DNA of 27,021 nt from Candidatus Parcubacteria bacterium (GCA_039795895.1 JBDKKW010000011.1:1-27021), one strand, 5' to 3'. Counted from the first letter of the stretch, positions 477 through 27,021 are shown. Notes: generated by a model from the sequence alone, not told the origin. Program-made: numbers and translations.

Positions 477-1001
477 TTAATTATTCGACATACAATATTC
501 CGTCGGACTCAACAGGGTGTAGACTCCCCCACTCACGGAGTACATCTTTAGTAAATTGTAACTCATTGTCTCGGTGGTAAAAGTAACTGCGTATTCTGAA
601 GTTCCATTGATACCACAACTAAATCCGCCACTCGTAAGCGTTTGTTTGCCGTAAAATTTATAACATAGCGTACCAGTGTTTGTCGGATCACTCGGAATCT
701 GAGCGATATGCTTTCCGGTCACCAAACTATTCAATACGGTGCTCAATGCGGTCGCACCACTCGCACACGAAGACGCTACAGGAAGAGTATCTGGAAATGT
801 CCCCGTGGTGGTACGGTAGAGCTCAATTGCCGCTCGCAATTGATTTGCTCCAGCCACTCGTGAGGTATCTCGCCCCTTTTGACGAGCCACATTGAGTCCT
901 GCAAATACAATCGAACTCAACAAGGCAATAATCGATATCACCACCAAGAGCTCTACGAGGGTGAAGCCTGAATTTTGTTTTGTTTTAGAATAAAGAGACA
1001 T
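477..1001 (-). CDS. Type IV pilin / pseudopilin-like protein (prepilin N-terminal methylation motif)
   Basis: The N-terminus MSLYSKTKQNSGFTLVELLVVISIIALLSSIV is a classic class III signal peptide: G|FTLVE cleavage/methylation motif followed by a hydrophobic helix. 174 aa, Ser/Thr/Gly-rich C-terminal part with paired Cys. Start is 9 nt after the stop of the upstream large ORF, so probably co-transcribed. Confidence 0.7.
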   Translation of the reverse strand: MSLYSKTKQNSGFTLVELLVVISIIALLSSIVFAGLNVARQKGRDTSRVAGANQLRAAIELYRTTTGTFPDTLPVASSCASGATALSTVLNSLVTGKHIAQIPSDPTNTGTLCYKFYGKQTLTSGGFSCGINGTSEYAVTFTTETMSYNLLKMYSVSGGVYTLLSPTEYCMSNN

Positions 1002-1010
1002 AGAAGTATA

Positions 1011-4000
1011 TTATCGTGATCGTGTTGAGACCTGTGTAGGAAAATCTTGTCCTAATCCAGGTGATCCAGGTAAACCGTAACCATTGGTCCAATCGAGGTT
1101 TGATTCCGAGTAGGTGTCTGCAACAGGAGTGGTGGTCGAGAATGGTGACCAAATAATATTTGCACTCGCAGATGCACCTAGACCAATCACGCCACTAGCA
1201 ATCTGAGACACCGTACCCATCAATCGCGATAGGCTTGGGTAGACTCTATCCGCCAAAAGAGTTACTGAGATAGTATCTTGTGAAGGTGCTGGCGAGTACG
1301 GCGTTAACATTGTAGCAACCAAGGTATACACTTTTGTACTATTCGCCGACACTATTTTTGCTGGAGATGAAGATGCGAAATCAACGGTCACATACTCTGT
1401 ATTAACCCCTCCATGCACTAACACTGGAAAACCAGCAGGTGCCCCATCAGCAAGTAGTATAAATCTACCTACAGCACTACCTGATGTAGCAACACTGAAA
1501 GTCACTCGCTTAAGCACTAAATCTCGAGATGTATTTGGATTAGTAACCGTAAACTTATACAATTCGGTATTTACGCCCAGTGTTCCCGCGGTTGGCACCA
1601 TTGCAAACCTTGGCACATTTCTAAAGATTCTAAAACCATCAGATTGCAACACCGCAGTTGTACCCCCAGAGATATTTTGACCTGACGACTGCCCGACTGC
1701 GTAGTTGCCAGATGTACCATTTACTGCACCATTATAGGCAATAGACAACAATGCCCCATAACCACCTAGATCTGGTATTGAATACAAGTTGGTATTCGAG
1801 TCATGAGGAGTGAGATCACCTTTTATCAAGAGTGTTTTGGTGGTGCCAGCAGGGATTGAAACTGGAGTAGCCAGTGTAGAGATGGCGTAATCAGGATTTG
1901 CGCCACCAAATTGTGCAATCCCCACTTGAGTCCCTCCATCCCACAGACTCACTTGTTGACCCACCAAGTCACTAGGTGAACTTGATGCAGTACTTCCCAA
2001 CTTAAGTGCTATTTGTTTAAGCATCACACCTTCTTGCGCGCCCGCAGTAAAATTAAATGCTCCGAGCACCGCGATCGCTGCCGCTTTTTCTATATGATAC
2101 AGGGAAGACGGCAACGACTGATTAAGACTTACGGTATATGAACCAGGTGCAATAACGAATATTGTCTGTCCTGCAGAGGCCAACATTGTTTCTGGTACAA
2201 CTAATCCAGATAATGCCCCTGTCGCCGAGGTATACGTGGCTTGATTAGGAGTCAGACCCCACGCAACAGATCCAGTGCTTACTGCTCCCGAAAGCGTACA
2301 CCTCAAAGAAATTGTCTTTATCGTACCCTTTGGAACAATCAAGCCTGTACCATCAAAGGTAAACACCTCATCGCCCCCATTTGGAACTGTCGGATTCTTA
2401 ATATTAGAACCTGTTGTAACAGCTGTCACACCATCAAACAACTGACATGAGGTTAGGCTTAATCCCGTGAATCCTGTATAGGTCAATTTAAGCGGTATCG
2501 AAGTTATTCGTATATCTCCACCAGACTGACGCGCATCAAAAATATACTGTGCAAATTCAAATCCAACAGTCCCAGGAAGAATAGTTCTGGTAGTTGTCGA
2601 TACAGGCATACTAATAGCCAAACTGAGCGGAGCAGTCGGTGTACTTACACTTACACTAAACGTCGCATCACTCGTATCCACCACCGACACCGATCCGCCA
2701 GCAGTCCCTGCGACCTCAATCTTGTATGTGCCGGACAAGGTACTGGTCGCAATAGTCACCGTCTGCATTCCATCATTTGGTGTGCCACCTGGAGTGAGAT
2801 TGACGCGAATTGGAGTCACCCCAGCAGTACCCACCAACGTAATTCCTACCGCCGGAATCGTACTAGTCGCATTTGAAGACCACTGCACATCCACACTAGA
2901 TCCTGGTGCAAAACTTTCTCCCCCATTTGGACTCAAGACCGTAATCGTCGGAGGTACATACGCTGGGATAGTCGCAGTGAGTACACCACCATCGGCAAAA
3001 GTCACCGTGATTGCTCCGCCGGTATACACCGTACGCTCCATCTGACCGTACATGGTAAACGGAACTACTGAGCCATTTTCAAGATAAAAATTCACTGCCC
3101 ACTTCCAATCAGTCGCTGGTCGCAAACCAGTATTCCCCTGACCTGGACCGAAAGTGCCCCAGACTCCGGCTCGGTCGTCTACATTTGGCACCACCGTAGC
3201 AGTAACCGCTGAAGCAGGCGCATTGGCTGGCAAAGTCACCAGATTGGTACTGTATGCCGTATTTAGCTTCTTGTCAGTCGCATCAAACACTACCAGTGGG
3301 TAATAAGCTGATTCGGAAGTAGACCAAATCCCTCCTTCTGCAGTGTGAGTGATTTTCACACTGGTAATCGCTGGGGTTGAGATCACGCCCGATACGAGCG
3401 TACCGTCAGTGAAGGTGACCGTAATCACCCCTCCCCCGTAGCGCAACTGCTCTTTCTGACCATATACAGAAAACTTGGTCGTCGAGGTAGCAACCATACC
3501 CGTACTGGTGCTGTATGTATAATTTACTTGCTGACCTGCAGTGTTTGTGATCACGAGCGGATAATAGGCGGATTCAGAAGTAGACCACACACCTCCCTCT
3601 TTGGTATGAGTAACCTTGATTGAAGCAATAGTCTTTGGAGAGTTTACTGAGACGGTGACATCCCATTTCCAATCATCACTTGGTCGATTCCCTGTATTTC
3701 CTCGGCCTGGACCAAAAACACTCCAGACTCCCGCTCGGTCGGTAGTGTTTGGTACCAAGACAGCAGAGACAGAATTGTTTGAAGGTGGCATGACTGGAGC
3801 AGGGTTGATGAGAATATACGCACTCGCCACATTTCGCTCTACCGTAGCAAGATCTGCTGACAAAGAAAATACCTCTGCAGTGAATGTCGCAGACGAAAGT
3901 GGACTTGAGGTGCTCATCATCGCAGTGTAGTAGGTGGTCGATGAGGCAATATTGAGTACTTGCACCTTTCCACACTGATCCTGTCCAAGAGAGAGGATAG

Positions 4001-4241
4001 TCACTCCAGCTGGACAGGTGACCTGAAGCTTGGAGATTTGGGTAGTTGCTGGTGATTTGACTGATACTGAAAATGCTCCGCCGGAATTTATCTGATCGAC
4101 TGAAGTGGTGACCAAGACCAGTGGATTTGAGATCCCCACCGCTGCCACGGTTGCTGTGTTTCGGAAATGACCCTGACTCAGTCCAAAAGTCATCACCGCA
4201 AACGCAACCAAAAAACTACCTAAAGCCACCTGTTTTAACAT
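1011..4241 (-). CDS. Large secreted Ser/Thr/Gly-rich repeat protein (1076 aa) with N-terminal signal peptide; adhesin-like or pilus-associated
   Basis: Long uninterrupted ORF. N-terminus MLKQVALGSFLVAFAVMTFGLSQG looks like a Sec signal peptide. Internal duplicated modules: DRAGVW..FGPG.GNTG.RP.DWKW appears twice, K.THT.EGG.WSTSESAYYPLV twice, YGQ.E...Y.GG.ITVTF.DG twice. Immediately upstream of the pilin gene with a 9-nt spacer. Confidence 0.6.
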   Translation of the reverse strand: MLKQVALGSFLVAFAVMTFGLSQGHFRNTATVAAVGISNPLVLVTTSVDQINSGGAFSVSVKSPATTQISKLQVTCPAGVTILSLGQDQCGKVQVLNIASSTTYYTAMMSTSSPLSSATFTAEVFSLSADLATVERNVASAYILINPAPVMPPSNNSVSAVLVPNTTDRAGVWSVFGPGRGNTGNRPSDDWKWDVTVSVNSPKTIASIKVTHTKEGGVWSTSESAYYPLVITNTAGQQVNYTYSTSTGMVATSTTKFSVYGQKEQLRYGGGVITVTFTDGTLVSGVISTPAITSVKITHTAEGGIWSTSESAYYPLVVFDATDKKLNTAYSTNLVTLPANAPASAVTATVVPNVDDRAGVWGTFGPGQGNTGLRPATDWKWAVNFYLENGSVVPFTMYGQMERTVYTGGAITVTFADGGVLTATIPAYVPPTITVLSPNGGESFAPGSSVDVQWSSNATSTIPAVGITLVGTAGVTPIRVNLTPGGTPNDGMQTVTIATSTLSGTYKIEVAGTAGGSVSVVDTSDATFSVSVSTPTAPLSLAISMPVSTTTRTILPGTVGFEFAQYIFDARQSGGDIRITSIPLKLTYTGFTGLSLTSCQLFDGVTAVTTGSNIKNPTVPNGGDEVFTFDGTGLIVPKGTIKTISLRCTLSGAVSTGSVAWGLTPNQATYTSATGALSGLVVPETMLASAGQTIFVIAPGSYTVSLNQSLPSSLYHIEKAAAIAVLGAFNFTAGAQEGVMLKQIALKLGSTASSSPSDLVGQQVSLWDGGTQVGIAQFGGANPDYAISTLATPVSIPAGTTKTLLIKGDLTPHDSNTNLYSIPDLGGYGALLSIAYNGAVNGTSGNYAVGQSSGQNISGGTTAVLQSDGFRIFRNVPRFAMVPTAGTLGVNTELYKFTVTNPNTSRDLVLKRVTFSVATSGSAVGRFILLADGAPAGFPVLVHGGVNTEYVTVDFASSSPAKIVSANSTKVYTLVATMLTPYSPAPSQDTISVTLLADRVYPSLSRLMGTVSQIASGVIGLGASASANIIWSPFSTTTPVADTYSESNLDWTNGYGLPGSPGLGQDFPTQVSTRSR
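2970..3745 (-). repeat. Intragenic duplicated coding modules within the large secreted protein, also visible at DNA level
   Basis: Protein residues about 168-423 contain three motif types, each present twice. DNA segments around 3300-3345 and 3555-3600 are recognisably similar (ggagg..tggtctacttc[cg]gaatc.gc.tattacc). Confidence 0.5.
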
Positions 4242-6492: not shown

Positions 6493-7131
6493 TTAGCCTC
6501 GGATTTCGAGGATTGCTCCACGAACGCCAGGGACAGCTCCTTTGACCAAGAGGAGATTTGCTTCAGTATTGATTTGAACCACTTTAAGATTTTTGACAGT
6601 CACGCGATCAGAACCCATTCGTCCGGCCATACGCAAGCCTTTTGCCACGCGTCCTCCGGCACGACCTCCTCCAGAAATAGTACCCACTTCACGCTCTGAG
6701 TGCTTCTGACCGTGTGTTCGGCGACCTCCGGCAAAATTGTGTCGCTTCACACCTCCTTGGAAGCCCTTACCTTTTGAGGTACCAACAACAGTGACTTCAT
6801 CCCCTTCTTTGAAGGCTGATACGTCCACTTTGTCACCTCGCTTTACAGTAATATCACTTTCGGTGCGAAATTCTCGAAGTACTTTAAACGTACCCAAATC
6901 TTTTGAGTGTCCTGCTTCTGCTTTAGTAGCAAGGGTTGCTCGTTTGGTACCAAAACCAAACTGCACTGCTTTGTATCCGTCCTTTGCCATCTCACGGACT
7001 TGCGTCACGGTGATTGGTCCTGCAGAAATAACCGTCACAGGGACAGCAATCCCCTTGTCGGTGAAAATCTGAGTCATGGCGACTTTTTCTCCAATTAGAA
7101 ATTTCATGATTGTTTTGAACACAGCGGCCAC
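6493..7131 (-). CDS. rplC: 50S ribosomal protein L3 (start possibly the internal ATG at 7107, MKFLIGEK)
   Basis: L3 hallmarks: IGEKVAMTQIF, GKGFQGGVKRHNFAGG, RMAGRMGSDRVTVKNLKVV. Confidence 0.9.
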   Translation of the reverse strand: MAAVFKTIMKFLIGEKVAMTQIFTDKGIAVPVTVISAGPITVTQVREMAKDGYKAVQFGFGTKRATLATKAEAGHSKDLGTFKVLREFRTESDITVKRGDKVDVSAFKEGDEVTVVGTSKGKGFQGGVKRHNFAGGRRTHGQKHSEREVGTISGGGRAGGRVAKGLRMAGRMGSDRVTVKNLKVVQINTEANLLLVKGAVPGVRGAILEIRG

Positions 7132-7296: not shown

Positions 7297-7836
7297 TTAG
7301 CACTCCTTCTTTTTCCACTCGGTGCTGGACATGAGTTGAGTCCCTGGATAGTGAGAGATCGAGTAGTGTGAGTGATTCGGATCAATTGATCGCAACACTG
7401 CAATCGTTGATTTTTCCCAGCGCGGGTCACAAGGAACAAGATTATTTTCGTTAAGACAAGCCATCGCCTTTTTTCTGGTCTTGAATAAAGCAACGACGGG
7501 CGATGTGGTTTTGCCCCAATAACGTGTATTTACCATTGCGATTTCCCTCTGGAATGAATTGCCTCCCCCTTCAGGAATAAAGGGGACAATTTGTCTCCCG
7601 ATTGAAATCAACTCACTCGGACTTTCTTGAAGATGACTACCGATAGCAATCTTACTCTTTTTATCCCCACGAATTGCTATCTTGACCACATCAATCCCTC
7701 CTTGAGGGCTTGGCCCGAGAGCGTAGACAGAGGTCGTCGTTACCGCAAAAAAGTCAGCTTTTGACTTCGGTGTTTGCAATGTTTCTTTCCTTTTCATTAT
7801 GCGCCTTTCTTTTTGAAGTTCCAATTCCAAATTCAT
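7297..7836 (-). CDS. Hypothetical protein (about 179 aa from the MNLELELQ start) inserted between rpsJ and rplC
   Basis: The ORF track extends to 7962, but a strong terminator hairpin (7872-7899) lies inside that extension. A TTGACA-like hexamer sits just upstream of the internal ATG at 7836. No family recognised. Bracketed by terminators on both sides. Confidence 0.4.
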   Translation of the reverse strand: MNLELELQKERRIMKRKETLQTPKSKADFFAVTTTSVYALGPSPQGGIDVVKIAIRGDKKSKIAIGSHLQESPSELISIGRQIVPFIPEGGGNSFQREIAMVNTRYWGKTTSPVVALFKTRKKAMACLNENNLVPCDPRWEKSTIAVLRSIDPNHSHYSISHYPGTQLMSSTEWKKKEC

Positions 7837-7871
7837 CTTACTGGTATTCCATCTACTGTCAACATAAAAAG

Positions 7872-7899
7872 AAAAAGACCGCTTCTGAGCGGTCTTTTT
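7872..7899 (-). terminator. Rho-independent terminator (aaaaagaccgc ttctga gcggtcttttt) ending the rpsJ transcript
   Basis: 11-bp perfect stem. The minus-strand reading is followed by tttttctttttat. Confidence 0.6.
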
Positions 7900-7904
7900 C
7901 TCGA

Positions 7905-8051
7905 TAGCGAGCGAGAAAGTATATTCAGAGCAGGGCGAGGAGCCGAGCGGGCACGGTGTCACATTCTGATGTGACGAGCGAGGCGAGCGGATAAGGAAAA
8001 ATCCCCGGCTGGGGGATTTTTCCGCTGCTCTGAATATACTTTCGAGCGAGC
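7905..8051 (-). repeat. Structured element of about 145 nt in the rpsJ 3' region: a 19-bp perfect inverted repeat enclosing two internal hairpins and GAGCG-rich repeats
   Basis: Arms are gaaagtatattcagagcag at 7915-7933 and ctgctctgaatatactttc at 8025-8043. Internal hairpins are gtcacat/atgtgac (7957-7976) and aaaaatcccc/ggggattttt (7996-8020). Repeated gagcgag/gccgagcgg/gacgagcgaggcgagcgg motifs. Direct 'cgagcgag' on both outer flanks. Confidence 0.45.
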
Positions 8052-8053
8052 CT

Positions 8054-8446
8054 TTACATCATCTTTACATCAATATTCACCCCACTCGGCAAACTCATGT
8101 TCGTGAGTGCCTCGATGATTTTTGCGTTCGGATTGACGATATCGATGAGTCGTTTGTGCACGCGCATTTCAAATTGTTCTCGCGCATTTTTGTATACGAA
8201 TGCAGAACGGTTCACGGTATACTTCTTGATTTCGGTAGGAAGCGGAACTGGGCCGAGCACCTTCACATCGAAGCGAAGAGCGGTATCCATAATCTGCTTT
8301 ACTGAAGCGTCAAGAATCTTACTTTCGTAAGCCCGAACTCGTATGCGCAGTCGCTGTGCAACATCCTCTTTCGGCGCTGTCTTTCGGACAGGCTTCACGG
8401 GAGTTTTAGCCACAACATCTTTTCGTGATGGATCTTTGACTGTCAT
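8054..8446 (-). CDS. rpsJ: 30S ribosomal protein S10 with a 27-aa Lys/Pro-rich N-terminal extension
   Basis: Residues 28-130 align with S10 (RLRIRVRAYESKILD...GPVPLPTEIKKYTVNRSAFVYKNAREQFEMRVHKRLIDI). The extension is MTVKDPSRKDVVAKTPVKPVRKTAPKEDVAQ. Confidence 0.9.
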   Translation of the reverse strand: MTVKDPSRKDVVAKTPVKPVRKTAPKEDVAQRLRIRVRAYESKILDASVKQIMDTALRFDVKVLGPVPLPTEIKKYTVNRSAFVYKNAREQFEMRVHKRLIDIVNPNAKIIEALTNMSLPSGVNIDVKMM

Positions 8447-9991: not shown

Positions 9992-10074
9992 GAAAAACGA
10001 GGACTTCTTTCGGGGGATTTAACACACTATGCGTATAGTGTATACTTCTAGTACAAAGTGCCGAAAGGCTCCGA

Positions 10075-10100
10075 GAAACCCCACCTAACGGTGGGGTTTC
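10075..10100. terminator. Hairpin gaaaccccacc taac ggtggggtttc (11-bp stem) 17 nt beyond the stop of the aspartic-protease gene
   Basis: Perfect stem. Followed on the plus strand by gagtttt. Terminator-like, but the T-run is weak in the minus orientation. Confidence 0.35.
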
Positions 10101-10116
10101 GAGTTTTAACAAAGAC

Positions 10117-10518
10117 TTATTCTCTTCTTTTTAATTCTACTTCCCCCTTGATTAAATCGAATTTAACAACAAAATTATCAAAAAAGCCTTTTTGTCCGAC
10201 TAGTCCGTATGGCATTACTCTTCCCGCAACATCTGGCATAAATCCAGCATCGATAGTGTATGACCATCCTCCGACTTCAATATCAAGTTTATGAAGATAA
10301 TAGACTGAGGCTTTTCCTCCAACACCAAATACCTCTTTCATTTTTCCACTTTGAATATCAATACCAATAGCTTCACCTATTTCTGCATCAAAAATACACA
10401 AATCGGCTCCGGAATCTACAAGGACCTCGTATCCAATATTTAAATCACCATTCTTTAATCGAATAGGTACTACAGGTCTGAGAGTATTTTGACCATACTG
10501 TTTATACTGAAATTTCAT
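10117..10518 (-). CDS. Retropepsin-like (clan AA) aspartic protease, 133 aa
   Basis: Carries the catalytic motif LVDSGAD (D-S/T-G-A) at the expected position, about 35 residues from the N-terminus, and a Gly-rich flap-like region. Size is typical of single-domain retropepsin-like proteases that act as homodimers. Confidence 0.65.
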   Translation of the reverse strand: MKFQYKQYGQNTLRPVVPIRLKNGDLNIGYEVLVDSGADLCIFDAEIGEAIGIDIQSGKMKEVFGVGGKASVYYLHKLDIEVGGWSYTIDAGFMPDVAGRVMPYGLVGQKGFFDNFVVKFDLIKGEVELKRRE

Positions 10519-10781
10519 AGCACACCAACATACGAAAGAATACTCTCTGGCATACGAGTCAAAATCGGAGATAGGTTACCTTTTTTGTGCGCTTCTAGTA
10601 AAGCCTCTTTGACCGTTTTACCCACACCCAAAATCGTCTGTTCATCAGACGCAAGTGCCACCCAGAGACCTCTATTTTTCTTATATATTTTAGTCCAATC
10701 AATAGGCATAGTGTCATTATACCCCCCAAAGGATCCTTTGCAAATCAAAGTTCGAAGTATACCCATAATAAAAAGTTTCAT
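10515..10781 (-). CDS. Small protein (64-88 aa) translationally coupled to the aspartic protease (ATGA overlap); possibly a DUF5678-like partner
   Basis: The stop TGA overlaps the protease ATG at 10515-10518. The segment KNRGLWVALASDEQTILGVGKTVKEALLEAHKKG resembles small proteins I recall being paired with retropepsin-like proteases. Start uncertain: M1 or MPIDW. Confidence 0.45.
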   Translation of the reverse strand: MKLFIMGILRTLICKGSFGGYNDTMPIDWTKIYKKNRGLWVALASDEQTILGVGKTVKEALLEAHKKGNLSPILTRMPESILSYVGVL

Positions 10782-10796
10782 AATTTATGCCAAACC

Positions 10797-11051
10797 TTGT
10801 ATCATATAGTGATGAAAAGAAAAAGCTGGCCGAAAGGCAAAAATGGATGGTGCTTCGCTACTATAAACGGGAGACTCGGTGAAATCTTCTTCGAAACCGC
10901 CGGGGGCTTATCGAGTATATTTGCGCATTGTTATGTCGATCGGAAAGAATTTAAGACGAAACAAGAGCAAGAAATGATCGATACTGACATCAAAAGAAAT
11001 CGCTTCACATATCGGAACAAGAAGTATACACAAAAAATAAAAGGTGCCTGA
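10797..11051 (+). CDS. Possible small basic protein (84 aa), the only plus-strand candidate; weak
   Basis: ORF in an otherwise 280-nt gap. TATAGT hexamer immediately upstream. A weak hairpin (aaaagg..cctttt) overlaps the stop. No homology recognised. Confidence 0.2.
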   Translation: MYHIVMKRKSWPKGKNGWCFATINGRLGEIFFETAGGLSSIFAHCYVDRKEFKTKQEQEMIDTDIKRNRFTYRNKKYTQKIKGA

Positions 11052-11063
11052 ATCCTTTTATTC

Positions 11064-12722
11064 CTAATTAGTTAGCGTAATAAAACCAACAAACTGCCCT
11101 CCAAAATTCACTTGATGTTGTCCCAACCAAGAATCTTTTGGTTTAAACCTGATTTCTGTATTATTCCAAGAAATTATTTCAACTTCTTTATTTGATATAG
11201 TAATCCTGTCACCATACACCGGTGTATCAGTAAAATTATTTCCACCCAACGTAAATACCGTATTCAAATTACCTGTATTCGGAACCAGTCCACCAAAAGT
11301 CACTTGGGCACGCACACAACTACCAATAGATTGATCTGACAGCTGATACCCAGTCTTACAAAAGACCTTCTCACACATACCGTCTTTCAATTTTGAGTTA
11401 TAAATATTTTTTATTTCCTGATACGAAGTTTGCCCCTGTAACAATTGATACCCCGCATTTGCCTTAGTTAGTGCATCACTAAACAATGCCCGTGATTGAT
11501 CTAAATTAGTTCTAGGAAACACAAGGCTATTGTAAACAAATATCTTCTGATCATTAGTCAGAAGACTATACGCAGAAAGAGTAGTATCATAGGCTGTCGC
11601 ATAATCATCTAACCCTTCCAATACCCCTGATTTAAGCAAAGATAACACGTCATCACCCAAACTTACACTTAATCCATTTATTTTATCTTTTGCTTCAGAG
11701 ATCGTCCGATAATAAGACTTTTGTGCGGCAACCATTTTATGGTATCCATAATCAAAATCAAATTGTCCATCAAGCTTACCGTCAACTGACTGATTATAAC
11801 TTTTCATAACATCAACCAGTGCAGTCAGAATATTTCCATAATCTCTATCGAAAATCGAGAAGCTACCCTTAATAGACTCACACATCGTGGCTTTGCCTGT
11901 ATCTAAGGAACTAATTTTGTTTGGTAGTGATGAAATAACAACCCCTTTTTGAAGAGATAAAATCTCAGCTTTGGCAACGTTAATTGGAATAGCTAATTTT
12001 ATAGTCTCTCCAATCTGAATCCCTTGCGCAGAACTTCCATAAACAGCTGAATTGATACCCACTACTTGTCCATATCTATTAACCAAAGGTCCCCCGCTAT
12101 TTCCGGGATGAATTTCGGCTGAAGTCTCAAGATATCTATCAACTCTACGTGAAATTGTTCCCTCTTTAAAACTAACGTCCCCTTTTATACCGAAGGGAAA
12201 ACCCAATGTAAACACCTCATCACCTTGTTCCACCTTCTCCGAATCACCTAGATCGACTTTAGAAAAATTCTTTTCTGAGTCGATTTTTAGTATCGCAATA
12301 TCAACATCCTCATCTCGACCAGTTACTTTCGCCAAAAAAGTCTCTCCACTAGAAATCGAGATATTTGCCATACTAACCCCTTGTACCACATGAGCATTAG
12401 ATAACACGTATCCGTCAGCACTGACTATCATTCCACTCCCCTTACCATTTTCGGTTTCAATATACACCACCGCAGGCTTCACTTTTTTGATTATCTGCCC
12501 ATTAGTAAGTTTTGTAGGCACAGTTGGAACTAAAGGCTTTTTTACAACCGTAGTAGTTGCCATAAACTTACTGGGAGATGTCGGCTGGGTTGTTGTCGCT
12601 TGTTTCTGATTAGTACCAAAAGAAATCTGGACTTTCCAAGTCAGAGGATTCCACCACGCCGCAAAAAGTAGATTTGGAGCAAGAAGGCTAACTGCAATGA
12701 CCGTTGCCAGAGTTCGATTCAT
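11064..12722 (-). CDS. Secreted trypsin-like (S1C/HtrA-type) serine protease with a Cys-containing C-terminal region of about 300 aa of unknown type
   Basis: N-terminal hydrophobic signal/anchor. Catalytic triad context: SNAHVV (His), DVDIAILK (Asp), GNSGGPLV (Ser). No PDZ-like sequence recognised by eye. The C-terminus contains CESIKG and C..FC...C Cys clusters. Confidence 0.8.
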   Translation of the reverse strand: MNRTLATVIAVSLLAPNLLFAAWWNPLTWKVQISFGTNQKQATTTQPTSPSKFMATTTVVKKPLVPTVPTKLTNGQIIKKVKPAVVYIETENGKGSGMIVSADGYVLSNAHVVQGVSMANISISSGETFLAKVTGRDEDVDIAILKIDSEKNFSKVDLGDSEKVEQGDEVFTLGFPFGIKGDVSFKEGTISRRVDRYLETSAEIHPGNSGGPLVNRYGQVVGINSAVYGSSAQGIQIGETIKLAIPINVAKAEILSLQKGVVISSLPNKISSLDTGKATMCESIKGSFSIFDRDYGNILTALVDVMKSYNQSVDGKLDGQFDFDYGYHKMVAAQKSYYRTISEAKDKINGLSVSLGDDVLSLLKSGVLEGLDDYATAYDTTLSAYSLLTNDQKIFVYNSLVFPRTNLDQSRALFSDALTKANAGYQLLQGQTSYQEIKNIYNSKLKDGMCEKVFCKTGYQLSDQSIGSCVRAQVTFGGLVPNTGNLNTVFTLGGNNFTDTPVYGDRITISNKEVEIISWNNTEIRFKPKDSWLGQHQVNFGGQFVGFITLTN

Positions 12723-12728
12723 AAGTAA

Positions 12729-12977
12729 TTAATATTTATACGGATCTACCGTCCCGCTCTTTCCAGTATATGGATTATAATTCCCTTTTGCTGAGAAATT
12801 ATCAATTTTGGTTCTATTTGGAGTGGTTTTATAATGCGGAGCGACGTAAGTACCAGTAGACCGTTTGTAATATCCTCGAACACGAGTAGTTCGAGCTTCT
12901 GCGGACATCGAAAAGGATAGGAGTCCTATAGCAAAAAGAGTAAGTAATATTTTTTTCACAGTAATACTACTGTACAT
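12729..12977 (-). CDS. Small secreted protein (82 aa, signal peptide) immediately upstream of the serine protease (6-nt gap)
   Basis: KKILLTLFAIGLLSFSMSAEA signal-peptide-like N-terminus. Tyr/Lys/Thr-rich mature part. Probably co-transcribed with the protease. Confidence 0.5.
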   Translation of the reverse strand: MYSSITVKKILLTLFAIGLLSFSMSAEARTTRVRGYYKRSTGTYVAPHYKTTPNRTKIDNFSAKGNYNPYTGKSGTVDPYKY

Positions 12978-13003
12978 CTTTTGTAGTCATAATACAAGAC
13001 AAC

Positions 13004-23381: not shown

Positions 23382-26300
23382 TTACTGACTCGTAGTAGTT
23401 GCTGTGGTGGAGCTAGCTATCTCTCCCCCAGTATCACTCGATGGGGTGACAGGACTACTTATCACAGAGACTGTGCGGGTAGAGGTGGCAGTATTTCCAG
23501 CAGTATCAGTCGCGACATAGGTCACTGTATGATCCCCTACTACTGACGTATCTATTTGATCACCAAATACGTGCACACCAAGATTAGTATCATGGTTGTC
23601 GGCTACAGTCGCTCCAGGATCAACATAAGTTGCTCCCACTAAAATCTGTGCGGGATTATTGCCGAGAATAGTGATAACTGGTGACTCGGTATCGGCCACC
23701 GAAGACGTCGCGTTTGTGCCTGATGTAGAGACAGTAGCTCCGGCATTTTTGATCAACGCCTTCAATCCCTCTTTATCAATACAAACGTCATCAACACACA
23801 ACTTATCCTCAATATGTAGCGTCTGAATAAACACTTCTTTAAAGCGAGCTACCGTATCAGACAAAGCGATGCCTAGTGACTGAAACGCTGAAATGATATT
23901 TGCTGTAAGACTACTCGAAGAAGTTGAGCTCGCCTGTCGCATAAGCTCTGCGATTTCTACTTGTTGTTCCTGAATCGCTTTTGCGAGCACGGCAGTCATT
24001 TCTCCGTATCGCACACCGTGCGGAGTGGTCGAAGCCGGCTCAAACACCGCAAGTCTCGGCTCAAGTGCGGCAACTTCTTCGGCAATAAAGCCTACGTGTG
24101 GTGAATTATCATTATTAAAAGTGAAACTCACTGGTCGAAGTGCATTCACCAAAGTAAGTCCCTGGGCACTGCTGAGCGTCTGAATATCATGCTTGAAGCG
24201 CTGAGATGATGCTGTACAATCGGTACCTCCTCCGTCATACAATACTCCACCTTGAATACACACCGCATTCGCCGAGCCCATCACACCCGAAAGTCCTGAA
24301 AAAGTAATTGAGCCTGAAGAAGTAATACCGGTTGCACCCGTAATCGTACCGCTGTTTACCGAGAAGGTGCCGTCGGTCAATGTACCTCCTTGAATAGTAC
24401 TCATCGCAGTAATTCCACCAGTTGAGACCGAGAGATTACCTGAACCAATATGAATCTCACCATTTACATCAAGTGGGTAACCAGGCGAGTTGGTGCCGAT
24501 ACCAAGACGTTTACTGGTATTGTCCCAGTAAAAGTTGGTGTTGTCTTGTGCGAGATTACCACTATCGACAAAGAGTACCGATCCTCCACTTGCACTTCCT
24601 ATCGGATCACCAATTGCAGAAATCCCTCCTCCGCCGCCACCACCGCCAGTGATACACGCACCATTCACCGCAAAACATCCGGAGGTGAGATTGATACCAC
24701 CGGTGCTTGAGAAAGTTGAAGTCGCGGTACTGAAATTAATACCATTCGTGTTACCGATAGAAAGCAGTGATCCCGGAGTACTTGTTCCGATACCGACGTT
24801 ATCGTCTGCTATTACCATTTCAGTCCCCGAATTATTTTGGAAATACATACTGGCTCCCTTGAAATAGGTATTTCTACTACCTTGATCGTAATTAAAATAC
24901 AAATCGCCACCCGAACCGGAATCAAACACAAAATTTCCAGTACTATCAATCCTTGCAACAGGCGAAGTTGTATCAACCCAAGCCGGAATCGAACCACCAA
25001 ATGCCACAGCATACCCTTTTGAATCTAAACTGACCATCTTTAGACCAAGTGTAGCGGATGAACCGTCTAGTTCCAACTTAACATCTGGTGTTGTGGTCCC
25101 AATTCCGACATATCCTGAAGATGACTGCACCACAAAACTTCCCGGACCAGCGATTCCTCCAGCGAACGTTGAGGTTGCCTCACTACTAGTAGCCGTAAAA
25201 TACGATCCGATAATACTGTTACCTAAAATATCACCTGCGACCGACAGCATTTGACCAGGAGAACTGGTGCCCACACCCACAGCCCCACTAGTGGTGAGTG
25301 TGCCCACATTGGTCAAATCATACACCGCTTCGGACCCTGAGGTGTTTCGATTAGCAAATGTGAGCCAGCTGTTTGATGCTTTGTTGAGCAGAGTTAATCC
25401 GCCACGAGCATAGAGATTTCCGGTCAAATCGAGATTATTACCCACATTGAGCTGATCCCCTACATTCAAGATACCGTCGGTTTTGATATTACCAGACGCC
25501 AAACGATAGATGTTTGCCAAAGGATCACCGCCAAAAGTAATTCCATTCGCCGATCCGGTCCCCCCAAGTGACAACAAGGTCGATGGAGTGGTGGTGCCGA
25601 TGCCGACCTTACCCGCAACTGATACGAGATACACATTGTCATTGGTGTTATCCATCACCAACGGGAAATTCGTACTCGCTCCATTATAAAACGCAAAATT
25701 TCCAGAACCAATAGCATAGTTGGTACTGCCCCCAATCATAAAGTCCCACACGTTTGCCACCGATGTGTTTTTAATCTGGAAACCAGACTGCCACGTGTCA
25801 TCCGACGAGAATGAAGCCACGAGGTCTCCTGAATTTGTTCCCGGGGTACTCTGAATGTCGAGCTTGGCAAGAGGATTGGTAGTGCCAATACCCACATTTG
25901 TGCCGTTGTCATAGACCGTTCCATTTATAAAACGTGATCCATCCCATCGTGGCACCTGATTGAGAGCGAGCGATGAGACAGTCGACGAGCCGAGCAGTCC
26001 AAGTGTCGATGTGGACATCAGTGCATACCCACCAAGATCGGTACCGACAAGTAGCTGACCGTATGCAGGAAGTGTAGTGAGTCCGGTACCACCACTTTCA
26101 ATACCCAGCGCACTACCTAAGGCCAAGGTGTCTGCTCGTAGCACCGTTGCAAAGAGTGTAGTTGAGGTAGCGTTGGTGGTAGTACTGTTGAACGCGGTAA
26201 CATCCTGGAGAGTCGATGAGCCCATCGTAAGTAAATTGCCAAATGAACCGCGACCCGAAACTAGTATATTTCCCGTTGCTTCAAAAATCGCATCTGAAGT

Positions 26301-27021
26301 GGTGGTTGCATTTCCACCCAAGATAAAGACGCTGGCGGTGTCGGTCGGATAGATAGCCAAACTATCGGTGGTGGTAGAAAATGATCCTGAACCACCACCG
26401 CCTCCTGCAATATCTGGTGCCCATGCTGGCACACCACCAACCAATTTCAACACCAATCCATTGGTTGAGATCGGAAGACGAGCGAGAGAGTTGTCGGCGT
26501 TTGCATACAGGATATCTCCCCTCGTGTAATTCGTCTGACCGGTACCACCATACACAACAGCGAGACTTGAAGTTGCCGAAATCACCCCATCAACAGCCTG
26601 CAATGGTCCGGTCACTGTACCCAAAAGAATATTGGTCGCAAAAAGTGACTCAGTGCTGATCGCCGTAGTCGATGCATATGGGAAAATACTCGCAACATCA
26701 GTCGATGTGGCGGTGAAGTATGATGCAACCAGATGATCTTGTGCCACAATAGTACCCGCCACATCGAGTGTCTGAGATGGTGCCGTAGTATTAATCCCAA
26801 AATTTCCACCAGAATAATAACTATCCCCGGTGCCAAAATTGATACTCAAGCGAACCGCATTACCACTATTTGAATCACGAATCTGAAACGCACGAGAGCC
26901 CGTAGAAGCACCGTTGAGGTTGATATTTTCTCCACCGAGCGAATCTTGGCCAAGGTACCAATTAGCATCTCCACTTCCCCGAAGGAAGATCTTTTTATTA
27001 AATGCGAGCGCCACATCACCA
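23382..27021 (-). CDS. Giant Gly/Thr/Ser-rich fibre-like surface protein, N-terminus outside the window. Contains a peptidase-S74 intramolecular-chaperone auto-processing domain (about 23940-24210) followed by a C-terminal DUF5011/Ig-like domain (about 23460-23690)
   Basis: Open frame of more than 1210 aa running to the window edge. Recurrent (N/Y)VGIGT(T/S)(T/N/S)P motifs typical of tail-fibre-like beta-structured repeat proteins. A G8 run. S74-like domain: SSQRFKHDIQTLSSAQGLTLVNALRPVSFTFNNDNSPHVGFIAEEVAALEPRLAVF...GVRYGEMTAVLAKAIQEQQVEIAEL. DUF5011-like domain: PVITILGNNPAQILVGATYVDPGATVADNHDTNLGVHVFGDQIDTSVVGDHTVTYVATDTAGNTATSTRTV. Confidence 0.7.
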   Translation of the reverse strand, partial: GDVALAFNKKIFLRGSGDANWYLGQDSLGGENINLNGASTGSRAFQIRDSNSGNAVRLSINFGTGDSYYSGGNFGINTTAPSQTLDVAGTIVAQDHLVASYFTATSTDVASIFPYASTTAISTESLFATNILLGTVTGPLQAVDGVISATSSLAVVYGGTGQTNYTRGDILYANADNSLARLPISTNGLVLKLVGGVPAWAPDIAGGGGGSGSFSTTTDSLAIYPTDTASVFILGGNATTTSDAIFEATGNILVSGRGSFGNLLTMGSSTLQDVTAFNSTTTNATSTTLFATVLRADTLALGSALGIESGGTGLTTLPAYGQLLVGTDLGGYALMSTSTLGLLGSSTVSSLALNQVPRWDGSRFINGTVYDNGTNVGIGTTNPLAKLDIQSTPGTNSGDLVASFSSDDTWQSGFQIKNTSVANVWDFMIGGSTNYAIGSGNFAFYNGASTNFPLVMDNTNDNVYLVSVAGKVGIGTTTPSTLLSLGGTGSANGITFGGDPLANIYRLASGNIKTDGILNVGDQLNVGNNLDLTGNLYARGGLTLLNKASNSWLTFANRNTSGSEAVYDLTNVGTLTTSGAVGVGTSSPGQMLSVAGDILGNSIIGSYFTATSSEATSTFAGGIAGPGSFVVQSSSGYVGIGTTTPDVKLELDGSSATLGLKMVSLDSKGYAVAFGGSIPAWVDTTSPVARIDSTGNFVFDSGSGGDLYFNYDQGSRNTYFKGASMYFQNNSGTEMVIADDNVGIGTSTPGSLLSIGNTNGINFSTATSTFSSTGGINLTSGCFAVNGACITGGGGGGGGISAIGDPIGSASGGSVLFVDSGNLAQDNTNFYWDNTSKRLGIGTNSPGYPLDVNGEIHIGSGNLSVSTGGITAMSTIQGGTLTDGTFSVNSGTITGATGITSSGSITFSGLSGVMGSANAVCIQGGVLYDGGGTDCTASSQRFKHDIQTLSSAQGLTLVNALRPVSFTFNNDNSPHVGFIAEEVAALEPRLAVFEPASTTPHGVRYGEMTAVLAKAIQEQQVEIAELMRQASSTSSSSLTANIISAFQSLGIALSDTVARFKEVFIQTLHIEDKLCVDDVCIDKEGLKALIKNAGATVSTSGTNATSSVADTESPVITILGNNPAQILVGATYVDPGATVADNHDTNLGVHVFGDQIDTSVVGDHTVTYVATDTAGNTATSTRTVSVISSPVTPSSDTGGEIASSTTATTTSQ

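Follow-up and report, generated by a model that had tools for sequence, protein, structure and literature searches.

We analysed the whole contig JBDKKW010000011.1 of Candidatus Parcubacteria bacterium (GCA_039795895.1, positions 1-27021), a stretch of 27,021 nucleotides to which we refer as the window. The window is a str/S10 ribosomal region, and at its end lies a gene on the minus strand that encodes a giant fibre-like protein, in which a peptidase S74 domain is followed by further domains. This fibre protein is the subject of the present analysis. Its reading frame runs from 27020 to 23385 and stays without a stop codon up to the window end. As the window is the entire contig and the gene is open at its edge, the N-terminus is cut off and the length of 1,212 amino acids (aa) is a lower bound. 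The gene is separated by 124 bases from the downstream rpsL (22811-23257, minus strand), which is followed by rpsG on the same strand and then by fusA, tuf, rpsJ, rplC, rplD, rplW and rplB. A preliminary description, made from the sequence alone, had placed the gene directly upstream of rpsL on the same strand with no phage genes between them. We recovered this arrangement, and no phage genes were seen across the remaining 23 kb downstream, which hold ribosomal and housekeeping genes. The peptides quoted in that description and its open reading frame (ORF) are also present in the translation, and the strand is the minus strand. The GC content of the fibre gene (0.46-0.49) is comparable to that of its neighbours in the window. 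An Rfam scan and scans for promoters and terminators at the rpsL junction gave no matches.

The S74 domain of the preliminary description withstood a check with profile hidden Markov models (HMMs): Pfam Peptidase_S74 (PF13884) matches residues 938-988 (24057-24209) with 39.5 bits, above the curated cut-off of 22 (E 7e-10). The conserved catalytic serine is likewise in place, and the dyad of Ser938 and Lys943 is intact. Both residues are invariant in 25 of 25 sequences in an alignment of homologous tails from S74 to the immunoglobulin (Ig)-like domain (alignment A1); among the S74 segments of the homologues the serine is found in 65 of 67 and the lysine in 67 of 67. The same spacing, with the lysine five positions after the serine, is known from endoNF (S911/K916) and from the eukaryotic MYRF (S587/K592) (PMC8326128). 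In the MYRF structure 7dc3, which is of the S587A mutant, the mutant alanine aligns with the Ser938 column (PMC8326128).

We modelled residues 905-1212 with AlphaFold2 (AF2), using an alignment of 24 homologue tails. The S74 core with its long helix occupies model residues 40-128 (helix 101-128), with a predicted local distance difference test score (pLDDT) >90 at residues 50-110. With Foldseek, the top PDB match for the modelled tail is the MYRF ICA domain (7dc3, E 2.2e-4). A profile search against solved chains found the tail fibres 8jov (E 3e-16) and 6f45 (E 9e-13), the MYRF ICA domain 7dc3 (E 8e-12) and phi29 gp12 (3gud, E 5e-4). All four matches are confined to profile positions 14-127, and in 8jov the match reaches the chain end. 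We thus conclude that the chaperone ends at about residue 1032 and that 180 residues follow it. The assignment to the S74 family is based on the HMM match above cut-off, the Ser-Lys dyad and the predicted monomer fold with a beta-rich core and a long helix. About 185 residues had been reported beyond S74, and we count 186 residues C-terminal to the helix 'AIQEQQVEIAEL' (aa 1015-1026). The size proposed for the released fragment, about 25 kDa, needs correction: a cut at Ser938 gives 275 aa and 28.6 kDa.

Two elements stand out in the part that follows the chaperone, a cysteine hairpin and an Ig-like domain. The two hairpin cysteines, Cys1075 and Cys1080 (C171 and C176 in the model), are invariant in alignment A1 and in a second alignment of the cysteine module (A3); further invariant columns of A1 include S938, K943 and Ig-core positions. 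In the AF2 model the hairpin strands (169-172 and 175-178) place the two cysteines as cross-strand neighbours, and the two preceding helices are modelled with low confidence. This modelled placement is consistent with a disulfide. Across the family the module comes in two forms, in both of which the two cysteines are invariant (alignments A1 and A3; loci L009, L012 and L013). The short form reads 'ELCxGxTCxTxxQLxxLL' (C-x4-C, at times C-x9-10-C) and the long form 'GI(T/E)(L/M)xDxxTGxxYCxxIxNGxxxxxxGxC' (C-x13-C). A profile of the cysteine hairpin only (A3) yielded 99 candidates and 9 short fragments and was not informative.

The Ig-like domain, which the preliminary description had called DUF5011/HYR-like, matches Pfam Bact_surface_Ig-like (PF16403, formerly DUF5011) over residues 1116-1186 with 58.4 bits against a cut-off of 27 (E 7.6e-16). 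The HYR match over the same region is marginal, lying just above its cut-off (23.6 bits vs. 21.7). AF2 models a confident Ig sandwich (model residues 211-283, pLDDT >90), so that both the HMM match and the predicted beta-sandwich fold place the domain in the Ig family. Foldseek matches of this part include Big_3 (2kpn), BT2262, SraP, SlpX and Rib. In the C-terminal tail no transmembrane (TM) segment and no sorting motif were recognised, and a hydropathy scan of all 1,212 residues, including the part after S74, showed no TM-like segment.

Upstream of the chaperone, the repeated VGIGTTxP motifs and the run of eight glycines that had been reported are both present, together with an additional run of five. 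The motif [VFIL]G[IV][GN]T occurs seven times, at residues 74, 376, 472, 581, 638, 742 and 839. A BLAST search of the whole protein against itself gave no off-diagonal matches; the modules thus share the short motif only. Tail-fibre families of PHROGs match the fibre protein, and no solved structural relative of the fibre region was found. An AF2 monomer model of residues 366-660 has low confidence (mean pLDDT 54), and the beta-helix proposed in the preliminary description is neither favoured nor contradicted by it. The whole protein contains three closely spaced cysteine pairs (782/789, 921/935 and 1075/1080), and such pairs are consistent with an extracellular location.

Table 1. Features of the fibre protein and its gene, with window coordinates.
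Feature	Residues	Coordinates	Strand	Description
Fibre protein ORF		23382..27020	minus	1,212 codons plus stop at 23382-23384; 5' end beyond the contig
Fibre region	1-937	24210..27020	minus	G/T/S-rich (38%); seven 'VGIGTTxP' module starts; Cys pairs 782/789 and 921/935
G5 run	206-210	26391..26405	minus	probable flexible hinge
G8 run	792-799	24624..24647	minus	probable flexible hinge, just past the Cys782/Cys789 loop
S74 intramolecular chaperone / auto-cleavage domain	938-1032	23925..24209	minus	Pfam, AF2, Foldseek, profile
Ser938 codon	938	24207..24209	minus	predicted nucleophile; predicted scissile bond Ala937-Ser938
Lys943 codon	943	24192..24194	minus	predicted general base of the Ser-Lys dyad (Ser+5); conservation and spacing
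Post-chaperone module	1033-1094	23739..23924	minus	S-rich loop, two amphipathic helices, beta-hairpin, helix 'KEGLKALIKN'
Beta-hairpin KLCVDDVCID	1073-1082	23775-23804	minus	carries the invariant Cys1075/Cys1080
S/T/G low-complexity linker	1095-1114	23679..23738	minus	pLDDT <50; length varies among homologues
Ig-like domain	1116-1186	23463..23675	minus	PF16403 Bact_surface_Ig-like/DUF5011; weak HYR
S/T/P-rich C-terminal tail	1187-1212	23385..23462	minus	pLDDT <50

A search with the whole protein found 343 relatives, and our counts are taken from the best 120, i.e. 119 besides P0001, which is identical to the window protein. In 33 of the 119, S74 is followed by one or two Ig domains, and this order is constant. 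When we measured the distance from the catalytic serine to the C-terminus, at least 230 residues were found in 54 of 67 S74 segments, with a median of 272 (275 in the window protein); the canonical distance of at most 160 residues was found in only 7 of the 67. Many family members have an extension after S74 without a detectable Ig domain. The named homologues belong to Parcubacteria, Paceibacterota, Kaiserbacteria, Niyogibacteria and the 'Patescibacteria group', with one exception from Vicinamibacterales (P0070), in which S74 is terminal. For instance, the Patescibacteria proteins P0021, P0079, P0083 and P0114, named 'tail fiber domain-containing' or 'DUF5011 domain-containing', share with the window protein the same fibre, S74, cysteine module, linker, Ig domain and S/T tail. 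Their identity to it in the C-terminal 308 aa is 31-47%, about 47% being the maximum. Family members are hence already present in databases under automatic names; full-text literature searches found no paper on S74 proteins of bacteria of the candidate phyla radiation (CPR) or on the post-chaperone module. We conclude that the architecture is real, recurrent and unstudied, and that nothing in it contradicts current understanding. The preliminary description had presented an internal S74 domain as unusual. The internal position is confirmed; it is not without precedent, as the eukaryotic MYRF has it and it is the rule in a large Patescibacteria family.

As a contrast set, and not as a census, we scanned the GTDB species genomes with a single-sequence query and obtained 20 loci. 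In 11 of these, which are non-CPR, S74 is terminal; the stop lies 108-155 residues after the beginning of the match, and neither the cysteine module nor the Ig domain is present. These loci come from Acidobacteriota, Dependentiae, Pseudomonadota, Bacteroidota, Verrucomicrobiota, Delongbacteria and one further bacterium. Eight loci (L007-L014) have 207-326 residues following the S74 match; they are from Magasanikbacteria, Saccharibacteria, one metagenome-assembled genome (MAG) labelled 'bacterium' and three MAGs labelled Proteobacteria that carry CPR-like proteins. Seven of the eight contain the cysteine module, and the extension of L010 is different. A further MAG (L016) has an extension of 298 residues without the cysteine module. 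Searching 1.84 billion representatives with the A1 profile (S74 plus Ig) gave a top list dominated by tandem multi-Ig proteins, and its counts are thus not informative on the arrangement of S74 followed by Ig.

One of the extended loci has an aberrant C-terminus. At L007 (match 8001-8309), in a MAG labelled Alphaproteobacteria with a CPR-like protein, the Ig domain stops after 'PPVIQINGENPAHIHIGDSYNDLGA' and is followed by an Arg/His/Pro-rich tail that is seemingly out of frame. Either a frameshift error or a pseudogene would account for this broken Ig domain.

The homologues that are complete at their N-terminus begin in one of two ways. Some have a signal or TM segment within the first 40 residues; others start with a domain of about 60 residues that resembles HTH_17, followed by a single TM helix at residues 90-230. 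The Pfam scores of HTH_17 are weak (18-29 bits, with a cut-off of 27). The N-terminal anchors point to a membrane-anchored fibre that is directed outwards, with the C-terminus distal. The cytoplasmic helix-turn-helix (HTH) start is found in P0012, P0033, P0114 and about 20 others, in which a domain of DNA-binding type is tethered to a giant extracellular fibre. The name given to P0073 by the Joint Genome Institute, trimeric autotransporter adhesin, was considered for the family and rejected, as there is no Pfam match to a YadA-type beta-barrel and the C-terminus consists of S74, Ig and S/T tail.

Housekeeping or envelope genes make up the genomic neighbourhoods of four homologues (L002/L003, L004/L005, L006 and L029), and phage structural genes were found within about 10 kb in none of them. 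The proteins concerned are P0021 on a contig of 150 kb, P0114 in a complete 837-kb genome (CP066691; L004/L005), P0079 on a contig of 269 kb and P0003. The loci of P0114 and P0079 (L004, 10001-15019; L006, 10001-15010) lie in different Patescibacteria genomes and share dnaE upstream and cysS, a CtpB-like S41 peptidase and rplI downstream. This shared synteny suggests that the chromosomal locus has been inherited vertically. In addition, the neighbouring S41 peptidase could bear on processing.

The fibre protein can be compared with three kinds of known proteins. With the phage CIMCD/ICA domains (MEROPS S74; endoNF of K1F, T5 pb1, GA-1/phi29 gp12) it shares the Pfam family, the predicted fold, the Ser-(x4)-Lys dyad and the position of S74 directly after a Gly/Ser/Thr-rich, presumably fibrous region. 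In the phage proteins, however, S74 forms the extreme C-terminus, with about 105-155 residues from the serine compared to 275 here. Furthermore, the window gene is chromosomal and lies beside ribosomal genes, and its homologues are anchored by a signal or TM segment and not in a virion. MYRF, a transcription factor of eukaryotes that is bound to membranes, resembles the window protein in that its ICA/S74 domain is internal and other domains follow on the C-terminal side; MYRF is also the best structural match, with an aligned dyad. Yet in MYRF a TM helix follows the ICA domain and cleavage frees an N-terminal DNA-binding trimer, whereas the homologues of the window protein are anchored N-terminally, and in the window protein a Cys hairpin and an Ig domain come after S74. 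A MYRF-type topology was thus rejected for the window protein, as the hydropathy scan shows no TM segment after S74. Lastly, the chromosomal 'tail fiber domain-containing proteins' of Bacteroidota, Acidobacteriota, Verrucomicrobiota and Dependentiae are large bacterial proteins with modules of the 'VGIGTTxP' type before S74, as here; in contrast to the window protein, they end with S74 and lack the cysteine module and the Ig domain (the 11 loci above).

We consider it probable that the gene is a chromosomal gene of Patescibacteria (CPR, Paceibacteria-like) for a long, self-cleaving cell-surface fibre, most likely a homotrimer, in which the extension might serve as an assembly handle. By analogy with the full-length homologues, the missing N-terminus would be a signal peptide or a single TM anchor. 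The chain would be exported from the N- to the C-terminus, so that the S74 domain would emerge last. As in other members of the family, three S74 domains would then trimerise via the long helix and set the register in which the upstream fibre folds. Subsequently, the Ser938-Lys943 dyad seen in the sequence would cut between Ala937 and Ser938. The mature fibre would end with '...GGGTDCTA', and its tip loop might be stapled by a disulfide between Cys921 and Cys935. The fragment released by such a cut, which begins with 'SSQRFKHDIQTLSSAQGLTLVNALR', is computed to be acidic and would contain the chaperone, the cysteine-hairpin module, the flexible linker, the Ig domain and the S/T tail, its extension being typical of the CPR homologues. 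We guess that the extension acts as a handle for assembly outside the cytoplasm, with a disulfide-braced hairpin and helices that would lend the trimer stability once it is outside the cell. Until folding has finished, the C-termini might be kept on the cell surface by the Ig domain and the S/T tail; afterwards the fragment would be shed or stay bound to the wall.

The preliminary description had left open whether the gene encodes a host surface fibre or marks the edge of a prophage. The host fibre is supported, and the prophage is disfavoured by the homologue neighbourhoods, the N-terminal anchors and the searches of phage genomes. A tail fibre at a prophage edge, or a fibre of a tailocin or an extracellular contractile injection system, would have its other genes past the contig end. 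The matches to PHROG tail-fibre families fit such an origin, S74 is best known from phage fibres, and the upstream side does lie beyond the contig end, which falls inside the gene. However, rpsL and rpsG follow directly downstream on the same strand, the 23 kb downstream are ribosomal and housekeeping, and the gene has the GC content of the rest of the window. The four homologue neighbourhoods, two of them syntenic, are free of phage genes within about 10 kb on each side, and the homologues begin with a signal or TM anchor. Moreover, the comparisons with phages found one domain at a time; these were checks of limited sensitivity and not a census. With tblastn, the C-terminal 308 aa matched 26 records among 50,697 phage genomes, none of which extends past query residue 125 in one place, except for one match to the Ig domain only. 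A pattern scan of IMG/VR and a fold search of BFVD (at most 141 aligned columns) likewise recovered only single domains. We therefore regard a phage origin as very unlikely and conclude that the protein is host-encoded and probably a trimeric surface fibre.

Given a host fibre that is cleaved, the fate of the C-terminal fragment could also be different: it might stay non-covalently at the tip, where three Ig domains on flexible linkers would form a working adhesin, and the nick might act as a force-sensitive breakaway joint, similar to nicked SEA or GAIN domains. Within the C-terminal region, conservation is strongest in the Ig domain, in which P/G/A/D/G/T/R columns are invariant; this domain is duplicated in some homologues and is structurally similar to domains of adhesins and S-layers (SraP, Rib, SlpX); discarding three times 28.6 kDa per fibre would, in addition, be costly for a minimal cell. 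Yet an Ig domain is not obligatory, as many members are extended without a detectable one, and in the S74 systems examined so far the products come apart. In endoNF, the long tail fibre of T5 (pb1) and GA-1/phi29 gp12, the two products separate after cleavage. The same has been described for MYRF (PMC8326128, PMC3742443). We take such an adhesin tip to be a serious but clearly less probable alternative to the assembly handle. It could further be supposed that S74 serves only for trimerisation and folding and that cleavage has been lost, with a single chain whose true C-terminal tip is the Ig domain. Nothing speaks directly for this, although the internal position and the extra C-terminal mass might hinder the geometry of the active site. 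Without selection for catalysis, the near-perfect conservation of the dyad would be difficult to account for, and MYRF cleaves despite a large C-terminal extension (PMC8326128); we give this explanation hardly any weight. A more far-reaching idea, which appears unlikely to us, is that the cut is more than a maturation step and creates a two-piece, non-covalent organelle specific to CPR episymbionts, consisting of an anchored trimeric fibre and an Ig tip that could remain on the host or act as a decoy when shed. Here, the HTH paralogues would couple extracellular attachment or cleavage to a cytoplasmic DNA-binding domain, as a counterpart of MYRF with inverted topology.

Several points weigh against the self-cleaving host fibre with an assembly handle as we propose it. 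Cleavage, trimerisation and surface location are predicted by analogy with relatives. The role of the Ig domain and the cysteine module is a guess, and the strongly conserved Ig domain could equally be a working adhesin. The fold of the fibre region is not established by the AF2 monomer or by solved relatives, and the N-terminus and the DNA 5' of the gene lie outside the contig. That the extension is typical of CPR is, moreover, a statement about the best 120 of 343 homologues and 20 genome loci, which are no census.

CPR bacteria, or Patescibacteria, are ultra-small, mostly uncultured episymbionts. To our knowledge, little has been established about their attachment to host cells. According to our interpretation, they use the folding device of phage tail fibres, S74, in giant, chromosomally encoded, membrane-anchored proteins and add an extracytoplasmic module of their own. 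Should the cleavage be elucidated, together with what becomes of the Ig fragment, the family would provide a concrete candidate for CPR attachment fibres and a natural example of S74-assisted folding outside the cytoplasm. It would also correct the automatic 'tail fiber' labels, through which such genes can be mistaken for prophage remnants in CPR annotation.

Other genes in the window are described in the following. The EF-G encoded here is 91% identical to proteins of the 'Patescibacteria group' and about 81% identical to proteins of Paceibacterota, Minisyncoccia and Taylorbacteria. The region upstream of fusA differs in the relatives with 91% identical EF-G, and the same rpsG is present on only one other contig, which is shorter (L001, 9.2 kb). 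Between rpsG and fusA, within the str operon, lies an MVP-like gene (856 aa, 18887-21457, minus strand) with matches to MVP_shoulder (E 3.9e-23) and Vault_3 (E 7.5e-12). It is followed by two paralogue-like ORFs of 268 and 280 aa without Pfam matches (18078-18884 and 17169-18011, both on the minus strand) and then by Bax1-I and UDG. The same MVP-like arrangement is present on L001, which is a Logan contig. Bacterial MVP homologues have been described before (bioRxiv 10.1101/872010); the location of such a gene inside a CPR ribosomal operon is odd.

At the far end of the window, a secreted protein of 1,076 aa (1011-4241, minus strand) contains an internal duplication, and only a sub-threshold match to a Kre9/KNH Ig-like domain was obtained. 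Directly after it lies a type IV pilin-like gene with an N_methyl motif (477-1001, minus strand), so that the two form another pair of surface-structure genes. A link between the fibre gene and this pilin-like gene was considered and dismissed, as the two are not adjacent and no evidence connects them.

An ORF of 221 aa without a Pfam match (7297-7962, minus strand) lies between rpsJ (8054-8446) and rplC (6493-7131), which are adjacent in relatives with 91% identical EF-G (L030, L031); it appears to be an insertion in the S10 operon that is specific to this genome. Between tuf and fusA, the stretch 10000-13000 has a GC content of 0.36-0.40, compared to about 0.47 elsewhere. It encodes a secreted trypsin-like protease of 552 aa (Trypsin_2 plus TIG, 11064-12722), an ORF of 82 aa and a retropepsin-like aspartyl protease of 133 aa (10117-10518), and is possibly an acquired island.

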